Shown: positions 36,516 through 56,173, counted from the stretch's first letter. The stretch is 64,000 nucleotides of DNA from Escherichia coli (GCF_024502345.1 NZ_JALDNN010000001.1), one strand, 5' to 3'. The notes: generated from the letters alone by a model not told the origin. Numbers and translations are program-made.

Positions 36516-39838
<3,323 letters not shown>

Positions 39839-40055: not shown

Positions 40056-40428
40056 CTATGCCGGATGCCACCTATGCGGCAGCAGCTCTGCAATCTCACT
40101 AGCTCGCTGCGTCGGCAACCGTCTCAGCACATCCTTGAGATAGGCATACGGATCGTGCCCATTATTACGGGCCGACTGGATCAAACTCATGATCGCAGCA
40201 GCGCGCTTGAGCATGCGAACCCGCGCCGAGCATTTGAGAAGGCAACGGGATGAACGCTGGCTGGATAGCCGTGGTTTTCTGGGTAAGCAGGCGAATCCAT
40301 TTGTGGACGAGGTTGGCATTGAGGCTGTAGCCCAAGGCGATGTTTGCGATGGAGGCACCGGGTTCAGAACACTCCTGAATGACCTGGGCCTTGAAAGATT
40401 TGCTGTAGGTACGGCGCTGAGGGCGCAT
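40056..40428 (-). mobile_element. IS66-family remnant: TnpA N-terminal part joined to TnpC C-terminal tail (internal deletion)
   Basis: MRPQRRTYSKSFKAQVIQECSEPGASIANIALGYSLNANLVHKWIR (IS66 TnpA-like HTH) and, in another frame, ...AAAIMSLIQSARNNGHDPYAYLKDVLRRLPTQRASEIAELLPHRW (IS66 TnpC C-terminal motif). Confidence 0.5.
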
Positions 40429-40935
40429 GGAAAATCCGCTTGATGGGCCATGGCCTTCGGCGGCGGTGTCGGGAAGGTGTGTTGGCCGGACGGATACTGT
40501 TGAACTACGTTGTCTGGGGCAACGGAAGTGTTTCGGCCCGACTCTGGAACGCGATCCGCAGCGACGACTGGGCAATTCCGCACGTTGGCCTGAGCAGCCT
40601 CGGGGAAATCGTCGTCTGGGCGCGCCCAGACGAGTTTCCGCCAAGGAACATGCAGACAAGCAAGGGGCTGCGGGCACTCGGCTACAACGTGAGGATCGGT
40701 GTTTGATCGAGGCGCCTGTGGCACACGCAGGCTGAGGAGCCAGGCGCTGTCCATTGCCTGATCAGGCCGCCCCCCTGTGCCTTGCCTGAGCAGTTGACCT
40801 GCATCAATGGGGCGGGAGAACGCTGCACATTGCACTCTTGACTCCTGAAGTTTTTCATGGTAAGCCTAATATTACAAAGTATTGCAAGGATTTCCTTGGC
40901 CGGAACCGCAAAGCGACGCGATTGGAGAGGGTGAG

Positions 40936-41217
40936 ATGAAAGCGCACCTACAGGTGATTTTCACGCTCGATGAATTGGCTGCGTACTTGAAAGTCGGCAA
41001 GCGGACGCTTTATCGGCTCGCCGCACACGGGGAAATTCCGGCTTTCAAGGTGGGCGGGACGTGGCGGCTTCGTCAAAGTGAAATCGATCAGTGCATCAAT
41101 GATCAGACCCGAGCCGGAGCAAAGAAGGAGGTGATGCGCAAGCGTGAACAGCAGAAGTCATCCGAGCAGCCCGTGTCGCCTGGGCGCACTGCCCGTCGCA
41201 GCAGGCAAAGGGCTTGA
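40936..41217 (+). CDS. small HTH DNA-binding protein (excisionase/MerR-like), tLST orf1
   Basis: ORF 40882..41217; start placed at MKAHLQVIFTLDELAAYLKVGKRTLYRLAAHGEIPAFKVGGTWRLRQSEIDQ (HTH_17-like) preceded by ggagaggg. Confidence 0.6.
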   Translation: MKAHLQVIFTLDELAAYLKVGKRTLYRLAAHGEIPAFKVGGTWRLRQSEIDQCINDQTRAGAKKEVMRKREQQKSSEQPVSPGRTARRSRQRA

Positions 41218-41251
41218 GTAACTCGTTTTCCAATTTTTCTGGAGGTATGAC

Positions 41252-41821
41252 ATGGACATCGATTTCAAGAAGTTGGCTCCCTGGAACTGGTTCAAGAACG
41301 AGCAGCAAGAGCAGCAGACCGCCTCTTCCCTGCCGGTGCAGCGCAATGACCTGCCAGCGGCGAGCGGGCCAGTCAGCCCGATCCTGCAACTGCGTCGGGA
41401 AATCGACCGGCTGTTCGATGACGCATTCCGGGGCTTCGGTTTTCCGGCGTTGAACATGCCGCAGTGGCCATCCGATTGGTCGGGCATGCTGAAGCCGGCC
41501 CTGGACATCCAGGAAACCGACAAGCAGTACAAGATTGCCCTGGAAGTGCCCGGTGTCGAGGAGAAGGACATCCAGATCACCCTCGACAACGACGTGCTGA
41601 TGGTGCGTGGCGAGAAGCGCCAGGAACAGGAGAAGAAGGAAGGTGGCTTCCACCGTGTGGAGCGCTCCTACGGCAGCTTTCAGCGTGCCTTGAACCTGCC
41701 TGACGACGCCAACCAGGATTCGATCAAGGCATCGTTCAAGAACGGGGTGCTCACGGTCACGATCGACAAGCGCGAGGTCAGCGCGCCGAAGCAGGGACGC
41801 TCGATCCCGATCAACGGCTGA
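41252..41821 (+). CDS. small heat-shock protein (Hsp20/alpha-crystallin family)
   Basis: 189-aa ORF with alpha-crystallin domain ...DIQETDKQYKIALEVPGVEEKDIQITLDNDVLMVRGEKRQEQEKKEGGFHRVERSYGSFQRALNLPDDANQDSIKASFKNGVLTVTI. Confidence 0.85.
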   Translation: MDIDFKKLAPWNWFKNEQQEQQTASSLPVQRNDLPAASGPVSPILQLRREIDRLFDDAFRGFGFPALNMPQWPSDWSGMLKPALDIQETDKQYKIALEVPGVEEKDIQITLDNDVLMVRGEKRQEQEKKEGGFHRVERSYGSFQRALNLPDDANQDSIKASFKNGVLTVTIDKREVSAPKQGRSIPING

Positions 41822-41926
41822 CGTCGCCGGCTCGTTCGTCACAAGAAAAACCCGTCCCGAGACGAGGTGTCGCGGCTCGCGATGCCTCGTCGCCTCAACC
41901 TTTTCAACCTTCTAAGGAGCATCAGC

Positions 41927-44809
41927 ATGGCCAGAAAACAATGCCAGGTCTGCGGCCAACCCGCCACCGTGCGGGTGGAAGCCAATCTCAACGGTCGTCA
42001 CAGCACCATGCTGTTGTGCGACGACCATTACCGGCAATTAGTGCGCCAGCAAAAGCGCACCGTTTCGCCGCTGGAAGCCTTGTTCGGTTCGCGCAGCGGC
42101 CTGTTCGAGGACTTCCTCGGCAGTGACTTCTTCCGCATCGGCGACGACGCGACGCCAGTTGCCGCCGATACCGATGACGTGGTCGATGCCTCGTTTGGCG
42201 AGCCCGCCGCCGCAGGTTCGGGTGCGCCGCGCCGTCGCGGCAGTGGGCTGGCCAGCCGCATCAGCGAACAGTCGGAAGCCTTGTTGCAGGAGGCCGCCAA
42301 ACACGCTGCCGAATTTGGCCGCTCCGAGGTGGATACCGAACATCTGCTGCTGGCGCTGGCCGACAGCGACGTGGTCAAGACCATCCTGGGTCAGTTCAAG
42401 ATCAAGGTCGATGACCTCAAGCGGCAGATCGAGTCTGAGGCCAAGCGCGGGGACAAGCCCTTCGAGGGCGAGATCGGCGTGTCGCCGCGCGTGAAGGATG
42501 CGCTCAGCCGCGCCTTCGTGGCCTCCAATGAACTCGGTCATTCTTATGTCGGTCCAGAGCATTTCCTGATTGGTCTGGCCGAGGAAGGCGAAGGGCTGGC
42601 CGCCAACCTGCTGCGCCGCTACGGCCTGACGCCGCAGGCGCTGCGCCAACAGGTCAGCAAGGTGGTCGGCAAGGGCGCCGAGGATGGACGCGCTGAGACG
42701 CCGACCAACACGCCCGAGCTGGATAAATACTCGCGCGACCTCACCAAGATGGCGCGCGACGGCAAGCTCGACCCGGTGATCGGCCGCGCGCAGGAGATCG
42801 AAACCACCATCGAGGTGCTGGCCCGGCGCAAGAAGAACAACCCGGTGCTGATCGGCGAGCCGGGTGTGGGCAAGACCGCCATCGTCGAAGGGCTGGCGCA
42901 GCGCATGGTGGCGGGTGAAGTGCCCGAGACCTTGCGCGACAAGCGCCTGGTGGAACTCAACATCAACGCCATGGTGGCCGGCGCCAAATATCGCGGCGAG
43001 TTCGAGGAGCGCGTGCAGAAGGTGCTGAAGGAGGTGACCGAGCACCAGGGCGAGCTGATTTTGTTCATCGACGAGGTGCACACCATCGTCGGTGCCGGCC
43101 AGGGCGGTGGCGAAGGCGGGCTGGACGTGGCCAACGTATTCAAACCGATGATGGCGCGCGGTGAACTCAACCTGATCGGCGCCACGACGCTGAACGAGTA
43201 CCAGAAATACATCGAGAAGGATGCCGCACTGGAGCGGCGCTTCCAGCCGGTGACGGTGCCCGAGCCGACGGTGGCCCAGACCATCATGATTCTGCGCGGC
43301 CTGCGCGACACCTTCGAGGCGCACCACAAGGTCAGCATCTCCGAGGACGCGATCATCGCGGCGGCCGAGTTGTCCGACCGCTACATCACGGCGCGCTTCC
43401 TGCCGGACAAGGCGATCGACCTGCTCGACCAGGCGGCCGCGCGCGTGAAGCTGTCGGCCACGGCCCGGCCGGTGGCCGTGCAGGAGCTGGAGTCCGAACT
43501 GCACCAGCTGCGGCGTGAACAGGATTACGTGGCCGCGCGCAAGCAGTACGACCAGGCCGCCGAGCTCGGCAAGCGCATCGAAGCCAAGGAGACCGAGCTC
43601 AAGAAGCTCGTCGAGAACTGGGAGCGGGAGCGGGCCTCCGGCAGTGCAGAGGTCAAGGCGGAACACGTGGCGCAGATCGTCTCGCGCCTGACCGGCATCC
43701 CTGTCAACGAGTTGACGGTGGAAGAGCGCGAAAAGCTGCTGCACTTGGAACAACGGCTGCACGAGCGCCTGGTGGGACAAGACGAGGCGGTCCGTGCCGT
43801 GGCCGATGCCGTGCGGCTGTCCCGCGCCGGCCTGCGCGAAGGCAGCAAACCGGTGGCTACCTTCCTGTTTCTGGGCCCGACCGGGGTGGGCAAGACCGAG
43901 CTCGCCAAGGCATTGGCCGAATCGATCTACGGCGATGAGCACGCCCTGTTGCGCATCGACATGTCGGAATATGGCGAACGCCATACCGTGGCGCGGCTGG
44001 TGGGCGCGCCTCCGGGCTATGTCGGTTACGACGAAGGCGGTCAGCTCACCGAGAAGGTGCGGCGCAAGCCCTACAGCGTGCTGCTGCTCGACGAGATCGA
44101 GAAGGCACACCCTGACGTCTACAACATCCTGCTGCAAGTGTTCGACGACGGTCGCCTCACCGACGGCAAGGGCCGGGTGGTGGATTTCACCAACACCATC
44201 ATCATCGCCACGTCCAACCTGGGTTCGGACATCATCCAGCGACGGCTGAAGGCGCGTGGGGCGGCCGACGAGGAGTACGAAAAGACCAAGGCCGAGGTCA
44301 TGGACGTGCTGCGCGGCCACTTCCGGCCCGAGTTCCTCAACCGCATCGACGAGATCATCGTCTTCCATGCGCTGGGTAAGGAGGAGATCCGCCACATCGT
44401 CGGCCTGCAGCTCGATCGCGTGGCGCGCAGCGCCGCCAGCCAGGGCGTGACGCTCACTTTCGATCAGACGCTGATCGACCATTTCGCGGAAGAAGGCTAC
44501 AAACCCGAGTTCGGTGCGCGTGAACTCAAGCGCCTGATCCGCAGCGAGCTGGAAACTGCGCTGGCGCGCGAGATGCTCGGTGGCGGCATCGGCAAGGGCG
44601 ATCACGCCAGCGCACGCTGGGACGACAAGGCCGAACGCGTGGTGTTCGAACGCAAAGAGCCACTGCAGACCCCGGCCGAGCCGGAGCAGCCGGATGCCGC
44701 GAAGGCGACCGAGCCGGAGCAGCCGGATGCCGCGAAGGCGACCGAGACGCCGCACGGCGACGCTGGCAAAGGCTCGCGCAAGAAGAAGTCGGCGAGCGAC
44801 GCATCTTGA
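41927..44809 (+). CDS. clpK: ClpK/ClpG-type stand-alone AAA+ disaggregase (two AAA domains, N-terminal zinc-binding extension)
   Basis: ORF 41867..44809; start at [15 protein letters not shown] after aaggag; Walker A GEPGVGKT / Walker [10 protein letters not shown] (AAA1), GPTGVGKT / [11 protein letters not shown] (AAA2); ClpB-like M-domain. Confidence 0.9.
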
Positions 44810-45060
44810 TGGCGGGCGAGGCTGCCGTGTCCGACCCCAAGGGCCTGGCATGGGCAGCCTCCCTGGCCTCGATCGCGGTGGCGTTCGTGGCCGCGGGTCA
44901 CGCGGTCGTCTACAAGCGTGATCCGCGGTCGACCACGCCGTGGGGGCTGCTCATCAGCGGCGGCACTGCCCTCCCGCTCGCTGGCCATCCGTTTGCGTGA
45001 CGGTGCGGCCCGTCTGTTCACCTGATCCTCTGGCAACTCGACTTTCGAGGAACACAGCCC

Positions 45061-46788
45061 ATGGAAAAAAAGAATCAATGGAATACCGGCTACTGGATCG
45101 TTGCCCTCCTGCTGTTGTTGAGTTTGCAGAGCTACTGGCAGACGGCGAAAACCGTCGAGCCGGTGCCCTACAGCGAGTTCGAGAAGGCGCTGGCCGAGGG
45201 GCGCGTGGCCGAAGTGCTGGTGTCGGATCGTACGGTGACCGGGCGCCTGAAGTCGCCGGACAGCCGGGGCAAGACGACGATCGTGGCAACGAGGGTCGAA
45301 CCCGATCTTGCCGATCGCCTGTCGAAGTACGACGTGCCCTATGCCCGCGTGTTGGAGAGCACCTGGCTGCGCGATGTGCTGTCGTGGATCCTGCCAGCGG
45401 TAGCCTTCTTTGGCGTCTGGTTCTTCCTGTTCCGCCGCTTCGCCGAGAAGCAGGGCATGGGCGGGTTTCTCAACATCGGTAAGAGCCGCGCCAAGGTGTT
45501 CGTGGAAAAGAACACCGGTGTGACGTTCGCCGATGTCGCGGGGGGGGATGAGGCCAAGGCGGAGCTGGTCGAGATCGTCGATTTCCTGAAGAATCCGCAG
45601 GACTATGGCCGTCTCGGGGCGCGCATTCCCAAGGGCGTGTTGCTGGTCGGCCCACCGGGCACCGGCAAGACATTGCTGGCCAAGGCTGTTGTCGGCGAGG
45701 CGGCGGTGCCCTTCTTCTCCATCTCCGGATCAGAGTTTGTCGAGATGTTCGTCGGCGTGGGTGCGGGCCGCACGCGCGGCGTCGGCGGCCACGACGAGAG
45801 CGAGCAGACCCTCAACCAACTGCTCACGGAGATGGACGGCTTCGACAGCTCGGTCGGGCTGATCATCCTCGCCGCCACCAACCGCCCCGAAATCCTCGAC
45901 CAGGCTCTGCTGCGTGCCGGCCGCTTCGACCGCCAGGTGCTGGTGGACCGGCCCGACAAGAAGGGGCGGCTGGACATCCTGAAGGTTCATGTCAAGAAGG
46001 TGACGCTGGCCCAGGATGTAGACCTCGAACAGGTAGCAGCACTGACCACGGGCTTTTCCGGCGCGGACCTCGCCAATAGGGTCAACAAGGCGGCGCTGGC
46101 GGCGAGGAGACGCCGTGCGTCCGCCGTGGAATTGCAGGACTTCACCGCGACCATCGAGCGCATCGTGGCGGGCCTGGAAAAGAAGAGCCGCGTGCTCAAT
46201 CCCAAGGAGCGGGAAACCGTGGCCCATCACGAGATGGGCCATGCGCTGGTGGCGCTGGCGCTGCCCGAAACCGACCCCGTACACAAGATCTCGATCATCC
46301 CGCGCGGCATCGGCGCGCTGGGCTACACCTTGCAGCGCCCCACCGAAGACCGCTTCCTGATGACGCGTACCGATCTCGAGCACAAGATCGCCGTACTGCT
46401 GGGCGGGCGTGCCGCCGAAAAGCTGGTGTTCGGCGAGTTGTCTACCGGGGCGGCGGACGATCTGGCGCGAGCCACCGACATCGCCCGCGACATGATCACC
46501 CGCTTTGGCATGGACGAGGGCCTGGGCTACATCGCCTTCGAGGCGCAGCGGCCCCGCTTTCTCGATACACCGGAACTGGCCCACGGCGGTTGCCGGGTGG
46601 CCGAATCGACCCAGGCGCGCATCGATCAGGCTATCCGCGACATCGTGATGGGCGTGTTCGAGCGCGCCTACCGGATTCTCGACATCTACCGCGCGGTGCT
46701 GGAGCGCTGCGCGCGCGAGCTGCTGGCGCGGGAAGCGCTCGACGAAAGCGATATCCGTCAATTGACTCAAGGACTTGTTCGGAACTGA
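45061..46788 (+). CDS. ftsH: FtsH-family membrane AAA+ zinc metalloprotease (island copy); apparent in-frame gap removing Walker B
   Basis: 575-aa ORF; two N-terminal TM segments, Walker [34 protein letters not shown], zinc site HEMGHAL; only GRTRGVG between GVGA and GHDE. Confidence 0.8.
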
Positions 46789-46875
46789 AAACAGTAGTAG
46801 GTGCCATTCAGAGTAAACCGACGGCTCTGTTCAGTGCGTCATCCAATTCGTCGGCATTGTTCAAGGAGAACCGAT

Positions 46876-47334
46876 ATGTCTGCATTGACTCCGTGGGACC
46901 CCTTCCGGGAACTGGATGAATTGCAAAACCGCCTGGCGACGATGTTCGGACGAATACCCCAGCGACAGGGCGCCCGTACCGGCAACGAAGCCATGACCAC
47001 GGCGGACTGGGCACCAATGGCGGACATCAGCGAGGATGAGAACGCATTCCTCCTCAAGCTGGATCTGCCGGAGGTCCCCAAGGATGCCGTGCGCGTCAGC
47101 GCGGAAAACGGTGTGCTCACCATCAGCGGCGAGCGCAAACTGGAAAAAGAGGAGCAGGGCAAGAAGTTCCACCGCATCGAACGTGCGTATGGCCGCTTTG
47201 TGCGCAGCTTTGTCTTGCCTGACAACGTTGATCCGACCAAGGTGACGGCTTCCATGAAAGACGGCGTACTGGAAGTGCGGCTTGTCAAGGCCGAGCAAGC
47301 CAAACCGAAACAGATTGAAATCTCAGTCAACTAA
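46876..47334 (+). CDS. small heat-shock protein (Hsp20 family), second copy
   Basis: ORF 46801..47334; start placed at MSALTPWDPFRELDELQNRLATMF after aaggag; alpha-crystallin core ...FLLKLDLPEVPKDAVRVSAENGVLTISGERK... Confidence 0.85.
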   Translation: MSALTPWDPFRELDELQNRLATMFGRIPQRQGARTGNEAMTTADWAPMADISEDENAFLLKLDLPEVPKDAVRVSAENGVLTISGERKLEKEEQGKKFHRIERAYGRFVRSFVLPDNVDPTKVTASMKDGVLEVRLVKAEQAKPKQIEISVN

Positions 47335-47356
47335 CTTCAATCAGGAGCCCAAGATC

Positions 47357-48271
47357 ATGAATATCAAACAGCCACAATACACCTTCTCCGCACTTGCCCT
47401 GGCGGTCGTCGTCGGACTGAGCGGACCGGCTCTGGCCCAATCGGCGGCAGGTTCTAGCCCAGGTGCTGCAGCCCCCTCTGCCGCATCCAAGGCGGCACAG
47501 CCACAAGTAGATGACAAGGCCGCCCGGGAAGCCGATAAAAAGCGTGCCGAGCTCACTCAAGACGCCATCACGGCGCTCACCAAGACCCAGGAGGCTTTGA
47601 CCCTCCTTGATGCAAAGAAGACCAAGGAGGCGCTTGCTGCGCTGGAACTGGCCAGCGGAAAGCTGGAACTGGTATTGGCACGTGACGCCAAACTTGCTTT
47701 GGCGCCGGTCGATGTACGCGTCATCACCCACGATATCCACGCCAACGTGGAATCGGTAAAGAAAGCGGTCAAGTTGTCTCGGGAGTTGTTGGGTGATGGC
47801 GAGGTGCAAAAGGCCCGGCCCATCGTTGCCAATCTGGCCAGCGAAATCGTAATCCAAACCGACAACCTTCCGATGGCAACGTACCCGGCAGCGATCAAGT
47901 CGGCCGCACGGCTCATCGACAGCGGCAAGATCGACAACGCCAAAGCGGAACTCGCCCGAGCACTGAACACGCTGGTGGTGACCTCGGTCGCCTTTCCTCT
48001 GCCCGTGCTACGGGCCGAAGCCGCGATGGCAAAAGCTGAAAAGCTGGCCGAGACCGACAGGCGCGATGCCAAGCAGAACGAGGAGCTCAGCACCTTGCTG
48101 TCGTCCGTGCGCACGGAGATCGAGATGGCGCAGATCCTGGGTTATGGCAAGAAGGCGGACTTCAAACCCATTTTCGATCAGGTGAAGTCCATTGAGCAAA
48201 AGTCGGCTGGTGGCAAAAGCGGCAAGGGATGGTTCGACGAGTTGAAGACGCGCATCCAAAAGCTGTTTTGA
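47357..48271 (+). CDS. yfdX: YfdX-family periplasmic protein (tLST YfdX1-like)
   Basis: ORF 47282..48271; start at MNIKQPQYTFSALALAVVVGLSGPALAQ (signal peptide); Ala/Lys-rich helical protein; position in tLST order. Confidence 0.65.
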   Translation: MNIKQPQYTFSALALAVVVGLSGPALAQSAAGSSPGAAAPSAASKAAQPQVDDKAAREADKKRAELTQDAITALTKTQEALTLLDAKKTKEALAALELASGKLELVLARDAKLALAPVDVRVITHDIHANVESVKKAVKLSRELLGDGEVQKARPIVANLASEIVIQTDNLPMATYPAAIKSAARLIDSGKIDNAKAELARALNTLVVTSVAFPLPVLRAEAAMAKAEKLAETDRRDAKQNEELSTLLSSVRTEIEMAQILGYGKKADFKPIFDQVKSIEQKSAGGKSGKGWFDELKTRIQKLF

Positions 48272-48373
48272 GGTGATGAAGGGGCTGACTGCTCTGTCGG
48301 TCAGTCTCGCGATGTTCGCATTCAGCCCCAACAGATTCGCCTATTTTCACTATCTCATACGAGGCATATCACC

Positions 48374-49261
48374 ATGAATGAGCAAACACCGAATCCCAAT
48401 GCGACGAACGAAGGAATAAACGAACAAGCCGCGGTAAGCAGCCTTCCTGTCAGTCCAGAGTCCAAGCCTGAAGTCGTCACGGAGGTACAGCCTGAGGTTC
48501 AGAAAGAAACGGACTCGCAGGCGGCAGACAAACGTAAACAAGTCCTCGATGAGGCAGTCTCGGCCTTGTCGCTGACCAAATCAGCGCTGGCCGCACTTGA
48601 CGGCAAGGACACTGCACGCGCATTGGCAACGCTGGCCGAAGTGACGGGAAAGCTGGAGCTGATCGTCGCGCGCGAACCCACGCTCGCCCTGGCCGGCGTT
48701 GATGTGCGCACCATCGTGCACGACTTGTTCGCCAACACGGAAACCATTGAGGCGATGACCGACGAGGCGCTGGATGCCCTCAAACATGGCGAGGTGCAAC
48801 AGGCTCGCCACGTGCTGGCTTTGCTGGCCAGTGAAATCGTGATCACGGTCACCAACATCCCTTTGGCGTCCTATCCCGCAGCCGTGAAGGCAGTCGTGCC
48901 GCTGATCGATCAGGGCAAGATCGAAGAAGCCAAAGCCGCGCTGCAGTCAGCGCTCAGCACGCTGGTCGAGGAGCGCAGCGTGCTTCCGCTGCCCGTCCTG
49001 CGTGCGAAGCTGCTCCTGAAGCGCGCCGAGCCTCTGGTAGAAGATGGTCAGCGCAGCGAAGCATCCAATGAGCGCCTGGAGACATTGTTGAACGAAGCCC
49101 GGCAGCAGTTGGAAATGGCAGAACTGCTGGGCTATGGAAAAAGGAAGGACTTTGAGCCCCTGTACGCTGAACTCAAGAAAATCAAGGAAAAGACGGGAGG
49201 GGGAGGCTTCGGAAAAGGCTGGCTCGATGAAGTCAAGGCAAAACTGTCCAGGTTGTTCTGA
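48374..49261 (+). CDS. yfdX: YfdX-family protein paralogue (tLST YfdX2-like); no obvious signal peptide
   Basis: 295-aa ORF sharing C-terminal motifs with the preceding gene (…LPLPVLRA…AEKLAE…ILGYGKK.DF.P…KGW.DE.K..…LF). Confidence 0.6.
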   Translation: MNEQTPNPNATNEGINEQAAVSSLPVSPESKPEVVTEVQPEVQKETDSQAADKRKQVLDEAVSALSLTKSALAALDGKDTARALATLAEVTGKLELIVAREPTLALAGVDVRTIVHDLFANTETIEAMTDEALDALKHGEVQQARHVLALLASEIVITVTNIPLASYPAAVKAVVPLIDQGKIEEAKAALQSALSTLVEERSVLPLPVLRAKLLLKRAEPLVEDGQRSEASNERLETLLNEARQQLEMAELLGYGKRKDFEPLYAELKKIKEKTGGGGFGKGWLDEVKAKLSRLF

Positions 49262-49270
49262 AACCGCTGG

Positions 49271-49295
49271 AGAGGGGGCGCATAGTGCCCCCTCT
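49271..49295 (+). terminator. GC-rich hairpin downstream of yfdX2 (possible intrinsic terminator; U-tract not immediately adjacent)
   Basis: agagggggc-gcatagt-gccccctct perfect 9-bp stem, followed ~20 nt later by tttgattttttattttg. Confidence 0.35.
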
Positions 49296-49350
49296 CTTGT
49301 CCCATGAGTGTTTGATTTTTTATTTTGTATAGATCTTTAGGAGATATTGC

Positions 49351-49962
49351 ATGAACACAGACACCATCACCGATTCCAGTGCGGATGACCCCACCAAAGC
49401 ACTGTGTTCGCTTAGCCAAAATTGGTGGCTTTTTGTGCTGCGCGGTGTCTTGGCATTGATTTTTGCAGCCCTCGCGTTCTGGATGCCACAATCGGCTCTG
49501 TTGGCCATGACCATCATGTTCGGCGCATTTTCCTTGGTCAATGGCGCGTTCAACTTGTTTGCAGCGGTGCGCCATATCCAGAAAAAAGAGCGCTGGGGCT
49601 GGTTGTTGTTCAGCGGCATTGTCGGCATACTTACGGGCGTCGTCGTCCTGGTTGCTCCTTGGGTCGCCACGATAGTCTTGGCTTCTTTTTTATGGGCTAG
49701 CGTGGGCTTCTGGGCGATTTTCACCGGTGTGCTGGAGATATCTGCCGCCGTTCGGCTGCGTCGGGAAATCAAGGGTGAAATCTGGCTTGCCCTCAGTGGA
49801 CTGCTCTCGATTATCCTTGGTGCTATCGTCTTGTGGATATTTTTTACCCGTCCGGTCGAGTCATTCGTGGCCGCAGGCTGGCTGTTGGGTTTCCATGCGG
49901 CAGTCTATGGCGTCACGCTTTTGTTCTTGAGTTGGAGTCTTCGCAAAACGCGCCTGGGGTAA
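49351..49962 (+). CDS. hdeD: HdeD-family acid-resistance membrane protein
   Basis: 203-aa ORF with ~6 hydrophobic segments (…WWLFVLRGVLALIFAALAFWMPQSALLAMTIMFGAFSLVNGAFNLFAAV…); tLST order. Confidence 0.75.
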   Translation: MNTDTITDSSADDPTKALCSLSQNWWLFVLRGVLALIFAALAFWMPQSALLAMTIMFGAFSLVNGAFNLFAAVRHIQKKERWGWLLFSGIVGILTGVVVLVAPWVATIVLASFLWASVGFWAIFTGVLEISAAVRLRREIKGEIWLALSGLLSIILGAIVLWIFFTRPVESFVAAGWLLGFHAAVYGVTLLFLSWSLRKTRLG

Positions 49963-50041
49963 GAGCGTGCCAAACCAAAATCTATGGATATGAGCATCCT
50001 CGATTCATGCCTCCATAGAAATGACATCGAAGGAGTCATAC

Positions 50042-51187
50042 ATGCAGATACAATATAGCTATCGAGCTATCGACAAAGAGTTTCATGAACCTTGGCAGAG
50101 AGCTTTGGGAAATGTGATCGAGCACGCCCTCAAGCCATTGCTCGACAAACACACTAAAGATTCAGCGCGACTTCAAATCGTCCTTGATCGCGACAAGATC
50201 AAGCGGCAATTTCTGGCCAGTGGCTATATGCACCTGCCCGGCAAAAAGATTGTCAGCGTTACTGCATCACATGACGAGCTGACGCCCCTCGCGCAGATGC
50301 TCGCACAGTCGTTGTTCCGTCAGGCCAAGAAGCATTTTGACCGACTGCATGCTCAGGATCAAATCAAGCGCAAAGCACGACGCGAGCGCTTGCGCGAGCT
50401 CAAGGTGCGGATTGCCGCAAAACCCGCATCAGCCGCCCATGAGGCCGAGGTGACCCGAATGCCTCTACTGTCGAAACTTGAGGCTGTCGCAAGGCGTGAG
50501 CTGGCTTATCTGCGGGCCGTCGGCGATTTACCGCGCGATTATCCGACGCTGCGCGACGTGGTGGATGAAGCGATTGTCCGAGCTAAGGTGGAATGGCAAT
50601 CCGTGCCGGGGGAAAAAGAGGCTTACACCGGTCTTTTGAAGCATCTGTTCGCCGTCCTGGATAACGAAGTGGCAAGCAGCCGGCAATTTGGCGAATTCGT
50701 TTCTCTGGACGCGCCGGTCGAACCGGATGCCCAAGACGTGGCCGAGGCCATGGTGGAAGAGGAAATCTTCGAATTTTATCAGCACGATGACACACTCAAG
50801 CTGGCCGATATTTTCGCTGGCAGTCAGCATCCCGATGTCGCAACGATCGCGGAACAGGAGGAGCTGATTGATCGGTCGAGCGAGTTCGCTTTTGCATTTG
50901 ACCTGCTGAAGGACATGCCGCGTTTGTGGCGGCGCATTTTTCTGCTTATCCGTGTGGACGGGCTGAATGCCAGCAGCGTCTCTGAAATCCTGCTGATTCC
51001 TAGTAAGGAAGATGCTGTCCAAAGGTGGCTCATGCAGGCCGAAGCATTCATCGCTGCTCATCTGGAAGAGGCCGGAGTAAGCAAAAACGGGAACGATTGG
51101 CTCCAAGGCGTTGATTGGCCGGCATTGTCTGTGACCCGAAGCGAGGCAGCCTCACTGTGGTCCAAGGAGGCGAACCATGAAGAATGA
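50042..51187 (+). CDS. hypothetical protein (tLST orf11); C-terminal segment resembles sigma-70 region 4 HTH
   Basis: ORF 50021..51187; ATG at 50042 preceded by aggag; C-terminal LKDMPRLWRRIFLLIRVDGLNASSVSEILLIPSKEDAVQRWLMQAEAFIAAHL. Confidence 0.5.
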   Translation: MQIQYSYRAIDKEFHEPWQRALGNVIEHALKPLLDKHTKDSARLQIVLDRDKIKRQFLASGYMHLPGKKIVSVTASHDELTPLAQMLAQSLFRQAKKHFDRLHAQDQIKRKARRERLRELKVRIAAKPASAAHEAEVTRMPLLSKLEAVARRELAYLRAVGDLPRDYPTLRDVVDEAIVRAKVEWQSVPGEKEAYTGLLKHLFAVLDNEVASSRQFGEFVSLDAPVEPDAQDVAEAMVEEEIFEFYQHDDTLKLADIFAGSQHPDVATIAEQEELIDRSSEFAFAFDLLKDMPRLWRRIFLLIRVDGLNASSVSEILLIPSKEDAVQRWLMQAEAFIAAHLEEAGVSKNGNDWLQGVDWPALSVTRSEAASLWSKEANHEE

Positions 51188-51617
51188 TCTTCACCTCGTC
51201 TGCCCGCATTGCCAGTCCATCAACCGCGTACCGACTGCGAAGCTATCGGAACATCCCAACTGTGGCCGCTGCCAGCAGCCCTTGTTCACGGGCGAGCCCA
51301 TCGAGTTGACCACGGCGACGTTCTCGCGCCACGTGGAGCGCAGCGATCTGCCGCTGCTGGTCGATTTCTGGGCGCCATGGTGCGGGCCGTGCAAGATGAT
51401 GGCGCCACAGTTCCAGCAAGCGGCGCACCAGCTCGAACCGACGATCCGGCTGGCGAAGGTGAATACCGAGGCTGAGCCCCACCTGGCCGCGCAGTTCGGT
51501 ATCCGCAGCATCCCGACGCTCGCCCTGTTCCAGGGTGGGCGGGAGATCGCCCGTCAGGCCGGCGTGATGGGCGCGCAGGACATCGTGCGCTGGACGTCGA
51601 CGCAAGTGGGACGCTGA
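51177..51617 (+). CDS. thioredoxin with N-terminal zinc-finger extension (Trx2-like)
   Basis: 146-aa ORF: CPHCQSINRV...CGRCQQPLF zinc ribbon and active site WAPWCGPCKMMAP. Confidence 0.85.
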   Translation: MKNDLHLVCPHCQSINRVPTAKLSEHPNCGRCQQPLFTGEPIELTTATFSRHVERSDLPLLVDFWAPWCGPCKMMAPQFQQAAHQLEPTIRLAKVNTEAEPHLAAQFGIRSIPTLALFQGGREIARQAGVMGAQDIVRWTSTQVGR

Positions 51618-51620
51618 CCG

Positions 51621-53336
51621 ATGCAGGGCTTGCTCGGCACTACGCTAATCCTGCTGGCGGCTTGCAGCCTGGCGGCGATGGCGACGGCGGCGTTCAGAGT
51701 GCCCGCCTTGCTGGGGTATCTCTCTGTCGGCGTTGTACTGGGCCCCTCAGTCATCGGCGTGATCGCGCCGGGGGAGACGCTGAGCTTTCTGTCCGAGCTG
51801 GGCGTGGCGCTGCTGTTGTTCATGGTCGGACTGGAATTCTCCCTCGGAGACTTCTGGCTCGCCCGCAGGACGGTGCTGATGGCGGGCGCTCTGCAGATGA
51901 TCGCCGTGGCCCCGCCGCTGATCCTGCTATTGATGTGGCTGGGGCAGCCCGGCCAGAGCGCCGCGCTGCTCGGCACTGCGGCGGCCATGTCGTCCACGGC
52001 GCTGGTCAGCCGACAACTGGCCGACCAAGGCGAGCTCACCACCCGCCACGGACGCAGTGCCATCGCCGTGCTGGTCTTTCAGGACCTGGCCAGCGTGCCC
52101 CTGCTGGCCTTGCTGGCGATCTGGGCGCGCGGCGACTCGCCGAAGATCGAGCATGTGCTGCTCGAAGTATTCGGTGTGCTGCTGCTGTTCGCGGCAGCGG
52201 CCCTCGCCTCGCGCCGTCTGTTGCATGGCCTGCTGGGCTGGGTGGCGCGGCGGGGCCACGAGGAATCGTTCGTGCTCGTCTCCTTGTGCGTGGTGGTGGC
52301 CGCCGCCGCCGCTGCGCACGCGGTCGGCGTATCTGCCGCCCTGGGGGCCTTCCTCGCCGGGATGGTGCTGGGCGAGAGCGACTTCCGGCACCACATGGAA
52401 AGCCACCTCAGGCCGTTTCGCGATGTGTTGTCGGGCGTGTTCTTCGTGACCATCGGCCTGCAACTGGACGCAGCACAGATTCTTTCGGCACCGCTGGCGG
52501 TGCTGGCGTGGCTGGTGGTGCTGGTACCGGTCAAGATCCTGCTCAATACACTGGCCTTGCGGGCGACGCGCCTGTCCGCCCTCGATGCCTGGCGCACGGG
52601 CATAGCGTTGGGGCACGGCGGCGAGTTCGCCCTGCTGTTGTTGGGCACGGTCTTGCAGCAGCATCTGATCCCCGCGACCGTCGTCCAACCCATGCTGGTC
52701 GCGCTGGTGCTCAGCATGGCCCTGGCACCGCTACTGATCCGCCATCACGATGTACTTGCCCGGTTCTTGAGCCGCACCGGCGGCGTCATTCAGCCACCCC
52801 AGGCTGAAGAAGTCGAGATCGCCGCGCAGACGACGCGATATCGAGACCATGTCATCATTTGCGGCGCGGGCGAGCTTGGCCTGACAGTCAGCGAGATTCT
52901 TCGCCACGCCGGCGTGGCGCATCTGCTGCTGGAGGCGGACGCGCAGAAGGTCGAGGCCGCGCGTGCCGCCGGCGCGCCGGTGTTCCATGCCGATGCCAGT
53001 CGGCCCGATACCTTGCTGGCTGCCGGCTTGACGCATGCACACTTGGTGGTGCTGACGTTCGCCCATGCCCAGCAAGCGTTGCGCATCGCCCAGGCGATTG
53101 CCGAGCACCGTCCGGCGCTGACCTTGTGGGTGTCATGCAGAAGTACGACCGCGGCCGATGCATTTCGCGCCATGCCCAACGTGCGCGTGTATCAGCAATC
53201 CTTTGCCGCAGCTATTGGGCTGGCGGAACAGGTGATGTCGACGCTTGGCATGTCGACCGAGCTGATTGAAGGACACATCAGCGCAATGCGCCGCCGTCTC
53301 GACAGCAGCCGTTTTCCAGGGAGTTCATCGTCATGA
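51621..53336 (+). CDS. kefB: KefB-like monovalent cation:proton antiporter-2 (CPA2) with C-terminal TrkA-N/RCK domain
   Basis: 571-aa ORF; 12-13 TM segments then Rossmann-type VIICGAGELG... regulatory domain. Confidence 0.8.
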   Translation: MQGLLGTTLILLAACSLAAMATAAFRVPALLGYLSVGVVLGPSVIGVIAPGETLSFLSELGVALLLFMVGLEFSLGDFWLARRTVLMAGALQMIAVAPPLILLLMWLGQPGQSAALLGTAAAMSSTALVSRQLADQGELTTRHGRSAIAVLVFQDLASVPLLALLAIWARGDSPKIEHVLLEVFGVLLLFAAAALASRRLLHGLLGWVARRGHEESFVLVSLCVVVAAAAAAHAVGVSAALGAFLAGMVLGESDFRHHMESHLRPFRDVLSGVFFVTIGLQLDAAQILSAPLAVLAWLVVLVPVKILLNTLALRATRLSALDAWRTGIALGHGGEFALLLLGTVLQQHLIPATVVQPMLVALVLSMALAPLLIRHHDVLARFLSRTGGVIQPPQAEEVEIAAQTTRYRDHVIICGAGELGLTVSEILRHAGVAHLLLEADAQKVEAARAAGAPVFHADASRPDTLLAAGLTHAHLVVLTFAHAQQALRIAQAIAEHRPALTLWVSCRSTTAADAFRAMPNVRVYQQSFAAAIGLAEQVMSTLGMSTELIEGHISAMRRRLDSSRFPGSSSS

Positions 53337-53830
53337 AATCAACACGCCTTAACCCATTTCAGGTCTTACGTGACCAATTGGCCATCATGAGTTTTTACGA
53401 GCGCTTCGAGCAGGTCGTCGCGCTCGTGCTGTCGGCGGTGATCGCCGTCATCATCGTGGTGTCGCTGTTCCAGCTCATCTCCATCGTCTTCACGCTGCTG
53501 GTTCTAGATGCCTTCAATCCCCTGGACCACGAGGTATTCCAGAGCGTGTTCGGCATGATCATGACGCTCTTGATCGCGATGGAGTTCAAGCATTCCATCG
53601 TGCGCGTGGCGCTGCGTCGGGACAGCATCATCCAGGTCAAGACGGTGGTCCTGATCGCGCTGATCGCACTCTCCCGCAAGTTCGTGATCCTCGACTCCAA
53701 CGCGAGCCCCGCAAAGATAGCCGCGCTGGCTAGCGCCACGCTGGCTCTGGGTGCGACCTACTGGCTGCTGCGCAAGCGCGGCGACCGCGCCGCCGAGACC
53801 TCTGAGCATGACCCGTCATCATCCCAGTGA
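53333..53830 (+). CDS. psiE: PsiE-family inner-membrane protein
   Basis: 165-aa ORF, four hydrophobic segments; position in tLST order; overlaps upstream and downstream genes. Confidence 0.6.
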   Translation: MKSTRLNPFQVLRDQLAIMSFYERFEQVVALVLSAVIAVIIVVSLFQLISIVFTLLVLDAFNPLDHEVFQSVFGMIMTLLIAMEFKHSIVRVALRRDSIIQVKTVVLIALIALSRKFVILDSNASPAKIAALASATLALGATYWLLRKRGDRAAETSEHDPSSSQ

Positions 53831-54773
53831 TCCGCGCACGGCGCTCTTGCAACACCGCTGGCTCAACCGCCTGCAGACCGGGCTGTTGGTCCTGACCCTG
53901 GTCGGGATCGCAGCCGCAGCAGGGAGACTGCCGTTTGGGGAAGGCTGCCTGTGGCTCGCGCTGTTTGCCATTGCAGGTGCGTTGCTGCTGGAACCGGTAG
54001 CCGCGTCGGCGCTGAGCTTGCGCCTGTACCGCGTACGGGCCTTGCACCCGCAAGAAGCCCACAAGATGTGGGCCCTATTGCGCGAGCTGCCCGCCCGTGC
54101 CGGTTTGCCCGCCACGCCGGTGCCGCACTATGTGCCCAGTGCCGTCGTCAACGCCTTCGCCACCGGATCGAAGCAGGAGGCATCGATCGCCCTCACCGAT
54201 GGCCTGCTGCGCAGCCTGAGCCCACGCGAGCTGGCGGGTGTGCTCGTGCACGAGGTCGCGCACATCGCTAATGAGGATCTGCGTGTCATGGGGCTGGCGG
54301 ATTCCGACAGTCGCCTCACGAGCCTACTGGCCCTTATGGGACAGATCGCGATCCAGCTCAGCCTGCCCGCGCAGCTGGTTGGCGCGGCGGAGGTCTATTG
54401 GCCTGGTCTATTGTTATTGGCCGCATCGCCCCAGCTGGCCCTGCTCGCACAGCTCGGCTTGTCTCGCGTGCGTGAGTTCGACGCTGACCGCCTTGCGGCG
54501 GAACTGACTGGCGACCCGCAGGGGCTGGCGTCCGTGCTGGCAAAAATCGAGCGGGTCAGCCGCTCCTGGCGTGCCTGGCTATGGCCGGGATGGGGCAATC
54601 CCGAGCACTCCTGCTTGCGTACGCGTCCGGCAACGCAAGAGCGCATTGCACGCCTGCTGACGTTGGCGCCTGGGCCAGCATCAGCGTTGCCACTCCGCGC
54701 GCCCCATTTTTTGCCGGAATCCGCTTTGGCGACGCGCCCACCGAGCTGGCGCCCGAGCGGGCTGTGGCGCTGA
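53808..54773 (+). CDS. M48-family zinc metalloprotease (HtpX-like)
   Basis: ORF 53751..54773; start placed at MTRHHPSDPRTALLQHRWLNRL; HExxH motif VLVHEVAHIANEDL; N-terminal TM segments. Confidence 0.75.
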   Translation: MTRHHPSDPRTALLQHRWLNRLQTGLLVLTLVGIAAAAGRLPFGEGCLWLALFAIAGALLLEPVAASALSLRLYRVRALHPQEAHKMWALLRELPARAGLPATPVPHYVPSAVVNAFATGSKQEASIALTDGLLRSLSPRELAGVLVHEVAHIANEDLRVMGLADSDSRLTSLLALMGQIAIQLSLPAQLVGAAEVYWPGLLLLAASPQLALLAQLGLSRVREFDADRLAAELTGDPQGLASVLAKIERVSRSWRAWLWPGWGNPEHSCLRTRPATQERIARLLTLAPGPASALPLRAPHFLPESALATRPPSWRPSGLWR

Positions 54774-54797
54774 TTGCCCATCAACAGGAGACGTCTC

Positions 54798-55949
54798 ATG
54801 GCCTATCTCGACCCGTACCAACGCCCCGCGCCGGACCGCTTCGTCCGGCGCGGGCTCTTCATCACCGCCTGCATTGCCGCGCTCATGCTGCTGTGGCAGT
54901 TTCTGCCCGCCATCGAGGCATGGTTCAGTCCGCGCGAGGCAGCAGAACGCACCGTGATGGCGCGTGGCGATCTGGCGGCGGACGAGAAAACCACCATCGA
55001 ACTGTTCGAAAAATCGCGCGCCTCGGTGGTCTACATCACCACCGCGCAATTAGTACGCGATGTCTGGACGCGCAACGTGTTCTCCGTGCCGCGCGGCACT
55101 GGCTCGGGCTTCATCTGGGACGACGCCGGCCACGTCGTCACCAACTTCCACGTCATCCAGGGCGCGTCCGAAGCCACCGTCAAACTGGCCGACGGCCGCG
55201 ACTACCAGGCCGCGCTGGTGGGGATGAGCCCCGCGCACGACATCGCCGTGCTCAAGATCGGCGTCGGTTTCAAGCGCCCGCCGGCCGTGCCGGTCGGCAC
55301 CAGTGCCGACCTCAAGGTGGGTCAGAAGGTGTTCGCTATCGGCAACCCCTTCGGCCTGGACTGGACGCTCACCACAGGTATCGTCTCCGCGCTCGACCGC
55401 TCGTTGCCGGGAGAAGCGGGCGGCCCGGCCATCGATCACCTGATCCAGACCGACGCCGCCATCAACCCCGGCAATTCCGGTGGCCCGCTGCTCGATTCGG
55501 CTGGGCGGCTGATCGGAATCAATACCGCCATCTACAGTCCGTCTGGCGCCTCGGCCGGCATAGGCTTTGCGGTGCCGGTCGATACCGTCATGCGCGTGGT
55601 GCCGCAACTCATAAAGACCGGCAAGTACATCCGTCCGGCACTGGGCATCGAGGTGGATGAGCAGATCAACGCGCGTCTGCAGGCGCTGACCGGCAGTAAG
55701 GGCGTATTCGTATTGCGCGTGACGCCGGGCTCGGCGGCGCACAGGGCCGGGCTCGTCGGCGTCGAGGTCACCGCAGGCGGCATCGTGCCCGGCGATCGCG
55801 TTATCAGCATCGACGGTATCGCCGTCGACGACGTCACCACATTACAGGCCCGGCTAGACGACAAGAACGTTGGAGATGTTGTGGTCTTGTTAGTGGAGCG
55901 GGCCGGCAAGACTCGCGAGATGCTTGTGGAACTACAACCGGGAGTTTGA
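54798..55949 (+). CDS. degP: DegP/HtrA-family periplasmic serine protease with single PDZ domain
   Basis: ORF 54774..55949; start at MAYLDPYQRP after aggag; catalytic H (TNFHVI), D (DIAVLKI), S (GNSGGPLL); C-terminal PDZ. Confidence 0.85.
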   Translation: MAYLDPYQRPAPDRFVRRGLFITACIAALMLLWQFLPAIEAWFSPREAAERTVMARGDLAADEKTTIELFEKSRASVVYITTAQLVRDVWTRNVFSVPRGTGSGFIWDDAGHVVTNFHVIQGASEATVKLADGRDYQAALVGMSPAHDIAVLKIGVGFKRPPAVPVGTSADLKVGQKVFAIGNPFGLDWTLTTGIVSALDRSLPGEAGGPAIDHLIQTDAAINPGNSGGPLLDSAGRLIGINTAIYSPSGASAGIGFAVPVDTVMRVVPQLIKTGKYIRPALGIEVDEQINARLQALTGSKGVFVLRVTPGSAAHRAGLVGVEVTAGGIVPGDRVISIDGIAVDDVTTLQARLDDKNVGDVVVLLVERAGKTREMLVELQPGV

Positions 55950-56173
55950 TGGAAAGTGGGTCATGGATCTGCACAGCGAAGCAGCCAAGCGACTTCAGCC
56001 TTGCGCCGAACTACGAGCCCTAGCTAGGGATGGTCTGAAGTAGCCCTGTATTTCCGGCTGACTTCAGCCACTGCTGATTTTGAAAGCGGTGAACCGATCA
56101 AAAACGATCGGATCACCCGCTCATTTCGGTGCTTTCAGCCGTCGCGAGCACCTTGCGACGGCCATTTTCCGCA

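Follow-up and report, generated by a model that had tools for sequence, protein, structure and literature searches.

Positions 40936-55949 of the window, a 64,000-nucleotide stretch of Escherichia coli DNA (NZ_JALDNN010000001.1), almost certainly represent an intact copy of LHR1/tLST1, the heat- and chlorine-tolerance island, in the chromosomal E. coli form exemplified by FAM21845. The gene content and order had been predicted to match LHR/tLST, and this is borne out: the block shares 99.8% identity, across 100% of its length, with E. coli chromosomal loci annotated as tLST, is colinear with the LHR1 of FAM21845 and encodes a disaggregase that passes the ClpK model. The NCBI annotation of the 99.8%-identical loci names clpK, hsp20, yfdX1/2, hdeD-GI, trx-GI, kefB-GI and psiE-GI. 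The core genes of published LHR/tLST lists (PMC8290217, PMC8407380), namely sHsp20, clpK, sHspGI, yfdX1 (pscA), yfdX2 (pscB), hdeD, orf11, trx, kefB, orf14, orf15 and degP, are all present in the expected order, in one direction and with open frames. A stand-alone ClpK-type disaggregase gene has the sHsp20 gene 105 nt upstream of it, the GC content of ~62% is well above that of the host, and mobile elements lie at both sides.

Published assignment to tLST1 uses at least 90% identity and at least 80% coverage to the reference NZ_CP025739. Judged instead against the FAM21845 LHR1 (99.7% over the full length) and the S43 and 2273-PO3 (NZ_CP061749) copies, to which it is likewise far above 90%/80%, the block very likely belongs to tLST1. 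At least 80% of the block is present in 118 of 5426 complete E. coli genomes and 1367 plasmid records match it, with copies on plasmids of Klebsiella, Enterobacter and Raoultella that cover it in full at 98.7% identity. The system is thus an already described one, and its identification is correct but ordinary rather than a discovery; scientifically nothing is new, because the island, its variants, gene functions and distribution have already been published.

Composition and gene content of the island

The rise in GC content expected across 40.9-56.0 kb is clear, with 62.2% in the block versus 51.8-54.8% in the flanks, both IS-rich and native (54.6% for native E. coli DNA at 1-26000, 51.8% for the IS block at 36501-40791 and 52.9% for the right flank). 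Published values for LHR are 61.8-62.3% (Mercer 2015; FAM21845 paper). Inside the block the GC is uneven, at 0.54-0.59 for sHSP-GI, yfdX1, yfdX2, hdeD and orf11 and 0.65-0.67 for the GC-richer clpK, ftsH, trx, kefB, htpX and degP, and GC3 per gene is 0.60-0.85. The original prediction also mentioned several spurious antisense ORFs longer than 300 aa; such ORFs exist and are spurious, but there are only two, at 42038-44851 (937 aa) and 45730-46770 (346 aa). clpK and ftsH each contain a single TTA/CTA/TCA codon, at 42038 and 45730 respectively, which are the exact ends of the antisense ORFs, and codon-shuffled clpK gives an antisense open run averaging 713 aa. These long antisense ORFs are therefore artefacts of codon bias.

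Every ORF that had been named is found on the plus strand, co-directional and free of internal stops. The total of 14 does not hold, since the NCBI annotation of relatives has 15 CDS, the extra one being a 63-aa ORF at 44809-45000. All 15 are open and are separated by intergenic gaps of -23 to +105 nt. The first, orf1 (40936..41217), encodes a 93-aa excisionase/MerR-type HTH protein (TIGR01764 'excise', 52 bits against a cutoff of 28.8), and is followed by the gene for the 189-aa small heat-shock protein sHSP20 (41252..41821), identified by Hsp20-family matches and by its annotation as hsp20 in the 99.8%-identical loci. The 960-aa ClpK disaggregase (41927..44809) scores 2132 bits with the NCBI curated model NF033606 (cutoff 1900), and a motif scan found both AAA modules intact, with Walker A and Walker B in each. 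In its tail a 33-bp repeat occurs twice (44676-44746; TRF), the number of copies being 1, 2 or 4 depending on the strain. The 63-aa hypothetical ORF that follows (44809..45000) is orf4 of the LHR numbering; it is annotated in relatives and a family search gave no match. Remnants of a cardiolipin synthase gene have been reported somewhere in LHR1 (Boll 2017), and these may sit in this interval between clpK and ftsH.

Downstream of ftsH (45061..46788, see below) lie the genes for the 152-aa sHSP20-GI (46876..47334; Hsp20-family matches), for YfdX1/PscA (47357..48271, 304 aa) and YfdX2/PscB (48374..49261, 295 aa), the two proteins of the block in which Pfam YfdX was found, and for the 203-aa membrane protein HdeD-GI (49351..49962; Pfam DUF308). 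By eye, the N-terminal sequence of YfdX1 looks signal-peptide-like on the printed sequence. The hypothetical orf11 (50042..51187) is an uninterrupted open frame of 381 aa with no family match in profile searches. It is followed by the 146-aa thioredoxin Trx-GI (51177..51617), which scores 155.9 bits with the TrxC model (cutoff 125) and has a CGPC active site at residue 69, by the 571-aa K+/H+ antiporter KefB-GI (51621..53336; CPA2 and KefB/KefC models) and by the 165-aa PsiE-GI, or orf14 (53333..53830; Pfam PsiE), the gene for which overlaps kefB by 4 nt. From sHSP20-GI to PsiE-GI, all of these assignments other than Trx-GI draw also on the annotation of relatives. The last two genes encode proteases: orf15 (53808..54773), a 321-aa M48/HtpX-like zinc protease with an HEVAH motif (Pfam Peptidase_M48; HtpX models), and DegP-GI (54798..55949), a 383-aa S1C serine protease with a PDZ domain and a GNSGG motif (Do-family model; Pfam Trypsin_2 and PDZ). 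Catalytic motifs are kept in ClpK, Trx, the HtpX-like protease and DegP, as judged by motif scan.

Upstream of the block, orf0 (40443..40706, plus strand) is a 264-nt hypothetical gene that corresponds in length and position to the 'orf0' of the FAM21845 paper; it is annotated as hypothetical in relatives, and no Pfam or NCBIfam family was found for it. Homology to the Klebsiella plasmid copy starts at 40792, and the conserved upstream region (40792..40935, plus strand) includes the published position of the LHR promoter, ~63 nt before orf1 (Mercer 2015). Since no consensus turned up in 40792..40935 in a simple scan for sigma-70 sites, a promoter upstream of orf1 rests on that published prediction. 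Past the degP stop by ~190 nt is a terminator-like hairpin (56138..56162, plus strand), an 11-bp stem then CAUUUUCC, with an MFE of -22 kcal/mol in a 61-nt folding window (z = -3.7; no fold of equal stability in 200 shuffles). The published terminator is located 177 bp past ORF16 (Mercer 2015). The block is best explained as an operon-like, horizontally acquired unit.

Predicted function and the FtsH-GI allele

Published tLST1 genetics suggest three modules that would act jointly. sHSP20, ClpK and sHSP-GI would hold and disaggregate cytoplasmic proteins damaged by heat or oxidant; YfdX1, YfdX2 and HdeD would protect the envelope; and Trx, KefB, the PsiE-like orf14, the M48 protease and DegP would handle oxidative and chlorine damage, with KefB guarding membrane lipids. 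Deletion of sHsp20, clpK, sHspGI, pscA, pscB or hdeD lowers both heat and chlorine resistance, and deletion of kefB lowers chlorine resistance (PMC8407380). One hallmark of LHR/tLST is that carriers survive 60 °C with a D60 above 6 min and tolerate chlorine; for the present island this is expected from the literature on near-identical loci (PMC8407380; Mercer 2015; Boll 2017). The 60 °C and oxidant tolerance originally attributed to the source strain is a prediction from this literature rather than a property visible in the sequence. A strain with an intact tLST1 would be expected to outlive ordinary E. coli in mild pasteurisation-type heating and chlorine sanitation, which gives the call of an intact tLST1 a practical value for food and water safety.

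The presence of a tLST alone is no guarantee of the extreme phenotype, because isolates with truncated variants are described in the cited literature as only moderately heat resistant. The island could look intact and yet be silent or weakly protective here, if the host background or its regulators do not drive the high expression needed. The moderately resistant carriers of truncated variants would fit such a situation, as would the high expression and fitness cost that a review ascribes to the system and the missing sigma-70 consensus upstream of orf1. However, it is rather unlikely, as all seven genes on which heat or chlorine resistance depends are intact, the 144 nt upstream are conserved with functional plasmid copies, and a near-identical LHR1 makes both FAM21805 and K-12 transconjugants resistant (Boll 2017).

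The gene at 45061..46788 (plus strand, 1728-nt ORF) had been listed simply as FtsH, and this has to be corrected. The 575-aa FtsH-GI allele that it encodes, characterized by Pfam AAA, by alignment to the Klebsiella plasmid FtsH and by motif scan, has in-frame deletions of 69 and 12 bp (81 bp in total) that take away the Walker B motif. In comparison with the 602-aa Klebsiella plasmid allele, 27 residues are deleted, IIFIDELDAL among them; positions 49-73 of the Pfam AAA model are absent and no hhhhDE motif was found in FtsH-GI by motif scan. Walker A (GPPGTGKT) and the HEMGH zinc site are kept. A functional FtsH AAA+ protease needs Walker A, Walker B and HEXXH, and FtsH-GI falls short on the second of these; due to this loss it is probably ATPase-dead. 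Related tLST subtypes with larger ftsH deletions have equal heat resistance. An identical 575-aa protein accession is present in EC2001, S43 and FAM21845. As FtsH-GI is still in frame, retains Walker A, the zinc site and the membrane anchor, and has the identical accession in these three carriers, it might be kept as an ATPase-dead subunit that joins host FtsH in mixed assemblies and dampens it, although this is quite unlikely. If it were true, sigma-32 could be stabilized, adding to stress tolerance.

Flanking DNA and mobility

The IS debris expected on either side is confirmed by NCBIfam models, with IS30, IS3-family, IS256 and IS66 sequences on the left and an IS5 remnant on the right. The IS30 copy (36516..37738, plus strand) has an intact transposase (ORF 36578-37729; 276 bits) and appears to be a late insertion at the mhpA'/IS3' junction; its 1223-bp span is missing from the otherwise colinear S43 locus. 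Next is an N-terminally truncated IS3-family (ISEc52-like) transposase fragment (37739..38642, plus strand; model positions 104-368 of 369), which is annotated as partial in EC2001 and NCTC11121 and which in other carriers contains a group II intron at 38163/38164. An IS256-family transposase gene (38540..39838, minus strand; 405 bits), annotated in relatives as a C-terminally truncated pseudogene, and IS66-family remnants (40056..40428, minus strand), consisting of a transposase C-terminal tail (28 bits) and a TnpA accessory fragment (67.9 bits), complete the left side. The right-hand IS5-family transposase remnant (56174..56770, minus strand) is N-terminally truncated (model positions 113-285 of 285). 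It is shared with plasmid copies up to 56547-56743, and colinearity with E. coli carriers stops at 56781, where the composite ends.

Further left, where plain E. coli DNA had been assumed, is a second, diverged mhpT-mhpE-F-D-C-B cluster ending in an mhpA' that lacks its N-terminus (29224..36513, minus strand; gene coordinates from the NCTC11121 annotation). Its nucleotide identity is 82.6% to the native mhp copy at 1-4805 and 78% to Klebsiella mhp. Within E. coli records it is matched at 99.9% in 105 and at 80-90% in 4819, with none in between, and it lies next to tLST1 in every carrier open to cross-check. These comparisons mark the left neighbour of tLST1 as a foreign mhp cluster rather than native E. 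coli sequence. The whole mosaic is lodged in the CP4-6 cryptic prophage. The foreign mhp neighbour and this location, like the copy-number repeat in the ClpK tail and the loss of Walker B by the 'FtsH' that the main E. coli subtype encodes, are incremental details, maybe useful to annotators.

The limits 40936-55949 are too narrow for the unit shared with plasmids, since IS66'-orf0-tLST-IS5' recurs with the same ends, at least 40113-56743, in many plasmids. In this window the island belongs to a mosaic that spans at least 27.6 kb and is composed of the foreign mhp, the IS30/IS3'/IS256'/IS66' debris, orf0, tLST and IS5'. No recombinase is encoded by the island itself and the same IS-flanked unit is found on Klebsiella, Enterobacter and Citrobacter plasmids; we therefore infer that it spread via plasmid carriage and recombination, not self-transposition. 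IS sequences at both sides, and the constant ends of the plasmid-shared unit, could instead suggest that the 15-kb block moves by itself as a composite transposon, with the flanking IS as its ends, and inserted here independently of the neighbouring DNA. This is very unlikely, because the remnants on the two sides are truncated and come from different families (IS66 left, IS5 right), neither with a complete transposase, and hence provide no matched IS pair able to move the segment. Moreover, the foreign mhp cluster and the CP4-6 backbone recur alongside the block in E. coli, and LHR1 reached K-12 in mating along with ~700 kb of donor chromosome (Boll 2017). The true E. coli vehicle of tLST1 may be a larger CP4-6-type mosaic (foreign mhp, IS debris, tLST and the GTPase-to-CbtA backbone) and not the 15-kb block, an idea less exotic than that of a maintained dead FtsH-GI subunit. 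An origin of the block in chimeric assembly or contaminating plasmid DNA, rather than in this chromosome, is extremely improbable despite the abundance of very similar sequence on Klebsiella plasmids, as four independent complete genomes (EC2001, NCTC11121, S43 and FAM21845) share its left and right junctions and the window resembles chromosomal E. coli copies (99.8%) more than it does those on plasmids (98.7%).

Comparison with described LHR/tLST systems

The island shares the sHsp20, ClpG/ClpK and sHsp core, the oxidative-stress module and the overall logic with tLST2/LHR2 and with tLSTa/tLST3a/TLPQC of P. aeruginosa clone C, but these have a cardiolipin synthase and a functional ftsH, and the island has neither. 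The match to TLPQC put forward originally thus holds only in the sense of a related variant: TLPQC/tLSTa/tLST3a was rejected as the ClpG model gives 1301 bits, below its cutoff of 1900, while the ClpK model passes, and as there is no cls and ftsH is without Walker B. tLST2/LHR2 is defined by the cardiolipin synthase (orfA), by orfC/orfD within orf11 and by a GGDEF gene (orfE) between kefB and orf14 (Boll 2017). An ORF scan of the block found no such ORFs and no room for them; the clpK-ftsH gap has the 63-aa ORF only, orf11 is intact and kefB and psiE overlap, and tLST2/LHR2 was accordingly rejected.

Klebsiella, Raoultella and Enterobacter plasmid tLST copies with full-length ftsH (e.g. pD16KP0042-1) are closer, with 100% coverage at 98.7% and homology over 40792-56547. 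They differ in having a 602-aa FtsH with Walker B intact, a 949-aa ClpK with one repeat copy, and another left flank. The original reference, the AW1.7 LHR or tLST1_AW1.7 (Mercer 2015), a form common on IncF plasmids, has the same core genes, order, GC and flanking mobile elements, and its copies on plasmids align to 94% of the block with 98.8-99.3% identity. According to its published description, AW1.7 has a 901-bp deletion in ftsH that leaves the fragments orf5 and orf6. The window has no such internal deletion and keeps one long 1728-nt ftsH ORF with only the 81-bp in-frame loss, so that the AW1.7 subtype was rejected in favour of the FAM21845 type.

The LHR1 of FAM21845 and FAM21805 (Boll 2017; PMC5514686) is 'tLST1' in the nomenclature of Zhang & Yang 2022 and Li 2025. 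The window differs from FAM21845 in having two copies of the 33-bp ClpK repeat (960 aa) instead of four (982 aa), in lacking two insertions that the left IS debris of FAM21845 contains, a group II intron and a Mu-like prophage, and in a 4.4-kb deletion directly right of the IS5' remnant. The orf0 seen here, the transposases on the 5' and 3' sides and the long ftsH ORF all appear in the FAM21845 paper. In all, the two loci have the same genes in the same order, the 575-aa FtsH ORF, 62% GC and the same chromosomal neighbourhood, and align colinearly over 38164-56781, which reaches from IS3' to IS5', at 99.67-99.69% nucleotide identity.

Gene content, composition and variant of the island

The block at 40936-55949 contains every ORF that the original prediction named, from orf1 to degP, co-directional as it described, and all on the + strand. 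None has an internal stop, and the intergenic spacing ranges from -23 to +105 nt. A 63-aa ORF (44809-45000, + strand) lies between clpK and ftsH; it is present in the NCBI annotation of near-identical loci and was absent from the original list. The ClpK protein scores 2132 bits against the NCBI curated ClpK model (cutoff 1900) and only 1301 bits against the sister ClpG model. Pfam matches are found for YfdX (two proteins), DUF308 (the HdeD family), PsiE, Peptidase_M48 and trypsin with PDZ. The thioredoxin is above the cutoff of the TrxC model, and there are clear similarities to KefB/CPA2, HtpX-like and Do-family protease models. Catalytic motifs are kept in ClpK (both AAA modules), the thioredoxin (CGPC), the M48 protease (HEVAH) and DegP (GNSGG). 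The HTH protein encoded by orf1 (40936-41217) gives 67 bits to the NCBIfam MADS1 anti-phage HTH model (cutoff 80) and also matches an excisionase-type HTH domain; the likeness to the MADS1 protein is probably a generic HTH similarity.

Chromosomal loci in many E. coli genomes match the block at 99.8% identity with 100% coverage; these loci are annotated with clpK, hsp20, hsp20-GI, yfdX1, yfdX2, hdeD-GI, trx-GI, kefB-GI and psiE-GI. At least 80% of the block is present in 118 of 5426 complete genomes, and 1367 plasmid records, mostly from Klebsiella, match it at ~98.7% identity. FAM21845 is a heat-resistant cheese isolate with a complete published genome, the LHR of which has a GC content of 62.3% and a 264-nt orf0 5' of orf1, with three transposase genes lying 5' and a single one 3' (PMC5514686). 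Window positions 38164-56781 are colinear with this LHR locus at 99.67-99.69% identity. The hallmarks of tLST2/LHR2 are a cardiolipin synthase, the insertion of orfC/orfD within orf11, and a GGDEF gene that follows kefB (Boll 2017). The block has none of them: the clpK-ftsH interval holds only the 63-aa ORF, orf11 runs without interruption, and the kefB and psiE reading frames overlap. The predicted LHR/tLST identity is thus borne out by annotated loci, colinearity and protein models alike, and from the FAM21845 alignment together with the missing hallmarks the block is very likely LHR1, 'tLST1' in recent nomenclature. The window is not FAM21845 itself, as that strain carries a Mu-like prophage, a group II intron and four copies of a repeat in ClpK.

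The GC content of the block is 62.2%, compared with 54.6% for native E. coli DNA (1-26000), 51.8% for the IS block to the left (36501-40791) and 52.9% for the right flank. The elevation over the flanks that was predicted is therefore present, although composition varies within the block. The segment from sHSP-GI through yfdX1, yfdX2 and hdeD to orf11 has a GC fraction of 0.54-0.59 and both outer segments 0.65-0.67, with GC3 of individual genes between 0.60 and 0.85. This unevenness is consistent with published proposals that such islands were assembled as modular mosaics (PMC8290217).

Two antisense ORFs exceed 300 aa, at 42038-44851 (937 aa) and 45730-46770 (346 aa). Both occupy the codon-aligned antisense frame, in which stops are possible only opposite sense TTA, CTA or TCA codons. 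There is exactly one such codon in clpK (42038) and one in ftsH (45730), which form the ends of both antisense ORFs, and when clpK is codon-shuffled the antisense open run still averages 713 aa. These ORFs are therefore artefacts of codon bias and spurious, as had been supposed.

Variation in FtsH and ClpK

The AAA domain of the window FtsH is split in two by Pfam, with model positions 49-73 absent. Compared with its 602-aa counterpart from a Klebsiella plasmid copy, the 575-aa window protein lacks 23 and 4 residues, including ...APAIIFIDELDAL, the Walker B motif, as a result of in-frame deletions of 69 bp and 12 bp. A motif scan of the protein finds Walker A and HEMGH and no Walker B. An AAA+ protein without Walker B should not hydrolyse ATP, and on this established biochemistry the window FtsH should be defective. 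When the island is compared with its Klebsiella plasmid counterpart, pN/pS is 0.59 for ftsH and 0.46 for the other genes pooled, but with 26 substitutions the numbers are too small to speak for or against relaxed selection on ftsH. The literature, including a review (PMC8290217), calls the ftsH of tLST1 truncated or deleted, without effect on heat resistance. In FAM21845 the same ORF is a single long one annotated plainly as FtsH, whereas the original LHR reference strain, AW1.7, has a 901-bp deletion (PMC5514686).

ClpK carries a 33-bp (11-aa) tandem repeat in its C-terminal tail (44676-44746). Plasmid alleles from Klebsiella and Citrobacter have a single copy, the window and E. coli S43 have two, and FAM21845 has four. 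The copy number explains the spans of 14981 and 15014 bp among the E. coli matches.

Flanking elements, chromosomal site and spread

The flanking IS elements were called correctly. On the left, NCBIfam models identify IS30 with its transposase intact, a fragment of an IS3-family element (positions 104-368 of the model), IS256, an IS66 TnpA fragment and an IS66 transposase tail; on the right they identify a fragment of an IS5-family element (positions 113-285 of the model). One of the Klebsiella plasmid copies is homologous over 40792-56547. The interval 40113-56743, comprising IS66', orf0, tLST and IS5' (primes denote truncated remnants), is common to many plasmids, and some share sequence further left, to 38334 or 37750. 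Because of this sharing, what was described as 'IS debris' is best read as part of the unit that is passed around, not as local decay. The IS30 (36516-37738) is missing from S43, which implies that its insertion is later than the rest of the arrangement. The left IS3-family fragment is an insertion hotspot, and the window has none of the insertions seen elsewhere: a group II intron (ltrA) at exactly 38163/38164 in other carriers (locus L001, 6958-9229, and the FAM21845 loci L004/L007), an additional IS110 in S43, and a Mu-like prophage within the intron in FAM21845.

The IS block is adjoined on its left by a second cluster of aromatic-acid catabolic genes (29224-36513; mhpT, mhpEFDCB and a truncated mhpA) with a GC content of 58.8% and 82.6% identity to the native mhp operon of the window (1-4805). 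Identity across E. coli genomes is bimodal, with 105 records at 99% or above, 4819 at 80-90%, which have the native copy only, and none between. Among the 60 foreign-mhp carriers listed are at least 22 of the 25 tLST1 carriers that match best, and most of the 105 records could be matched to tLST1 carriers. With identities of 78% to the mhp genes of Klebsiella and 83% to those of native E. coli, the cluster is taken to come from neither.

In S43 the CP4-6 cryptic prophage houses the whole arrangement, which has mmuP on one side and a ykfA-like GTPase gene on the other, near tRNA-Thr and proA. The Citrobacter freundii plasmid p6_A (NZ_CP048383.1, 4980-28535) carries IS256-IS66'-orf0-tLST, with ftsH deleted, followed by the GTPase-to-CbtA backbone genes found next to tLST1 in E. 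coli chromosomes; the GTPases of p6_A and S43 share one protein accession. Such an arrangement is evidence of joint movement of tLST1 and some of the CP4-6-type backbone between a chromosome and a plasmid. Transfer of LHR1 into K-12 was rare, and then occurred with ~700 kb of donor chromosome (Boll 2017). Together with the plasmid-shared unit and the CP4-6 context, these observations argue against self-transposition and for spread by plasmid carriage and by homologous recombination of a larger mosaic. Readings of the block as a composite transposon or as an assembly artefact were considered and rejected. In the literature covered, which did not include the survey of Zhang & Yang (2022; PMC9004401), tLST/LHR was not found paired with mmuP, mhpA, mhpT or CP4-6.

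Further rearrangements are seen on both sides. An IS1 copy (25097-25864) joins prpR, cut ~134 nt after its start, to fbpC (afuC), from which ~390 nt are missing at the 5' end. In comparison with E. coli NCTC11121, most of prpR, yahO, yahN, yahM and an afuB remnant are lost; FAM21845 retains the ecp/ykg region beyond the IS1. With most of the gene removed, the propionate catabolism regulator is probably inactive in this strain. At 56779-56781, directly right of the IS5 remnant, ~4.4 kb is missing relative to E. coli EC2001 and S43 (a GTPase gene, a DUF932 gene, yfjR, ypjK and part of a yfjS/yafY gene). Two CP4-type island end modules then lie tail to tail (57580-59671, +; 60250-63979, -), encoding antirestriction, RadC/JAB, DUF987 and CbeA/CbtA-type toxin-antitoxin proteins; they share 81% identity across 1.26 kb. 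The window is colinear with S43 as far as 60068, which falls 17 nt inside the position of the S43 tRNA-Thr (thrW), and ARAGORN finds no tRNA gene in the whole window. The facing modules, this end point and the lack of a tRNA gene suggest that the attachment site was rearranged or holds a second island. Rfam finds no RNA family at gathering thresholds in 36-64 kb.

Comparison with characterized LHR loci

A sigma-70 consensus scan gives no site 5' of orf1 and four sites in 16 kb, against 2.4 expected; the main LHR promoter has been placed 63 bp before ORF1 (Mercer 2015). After degP, a strong hairpin with a short U tract (56138-56162) was missed by the scan and is confirmed by folding (-22 kcal/mol, z = -3.7). 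It lies near the terminator placed 177 bp after ORF16 (Mercer 2015).

According to the literature on characterized loci, sHsp20, ClpK and sHsp-GI keep the aggregation and oxidation of proteins in check and reverse them, the envelope is where YfdX1, YfdX2 and HdeD act, and KefB shields membrane lipids from chlorine. Heat and chlorine resistance fall on deletion of sHsp20, clpK, sHspGI, pscA (yfdX1), pscB (yfdX2) or hdeD, and chlorine resistance on deletion of kefB (PMC8407380; review PMC8290217). All seven genes are intact in the window, so that heat and chlorine resistance is a reasonable prediction from the literature for the strain. The original observation and its interpretation are both sound, and the system is a thoroughly described one. 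The picture is refined by the loss of Walker B in FtsH, a repeat polymorphism in ClpK, a shared unit wider than first stated, a foreign mhp cluster linked to the island, and the location within CP4-6.
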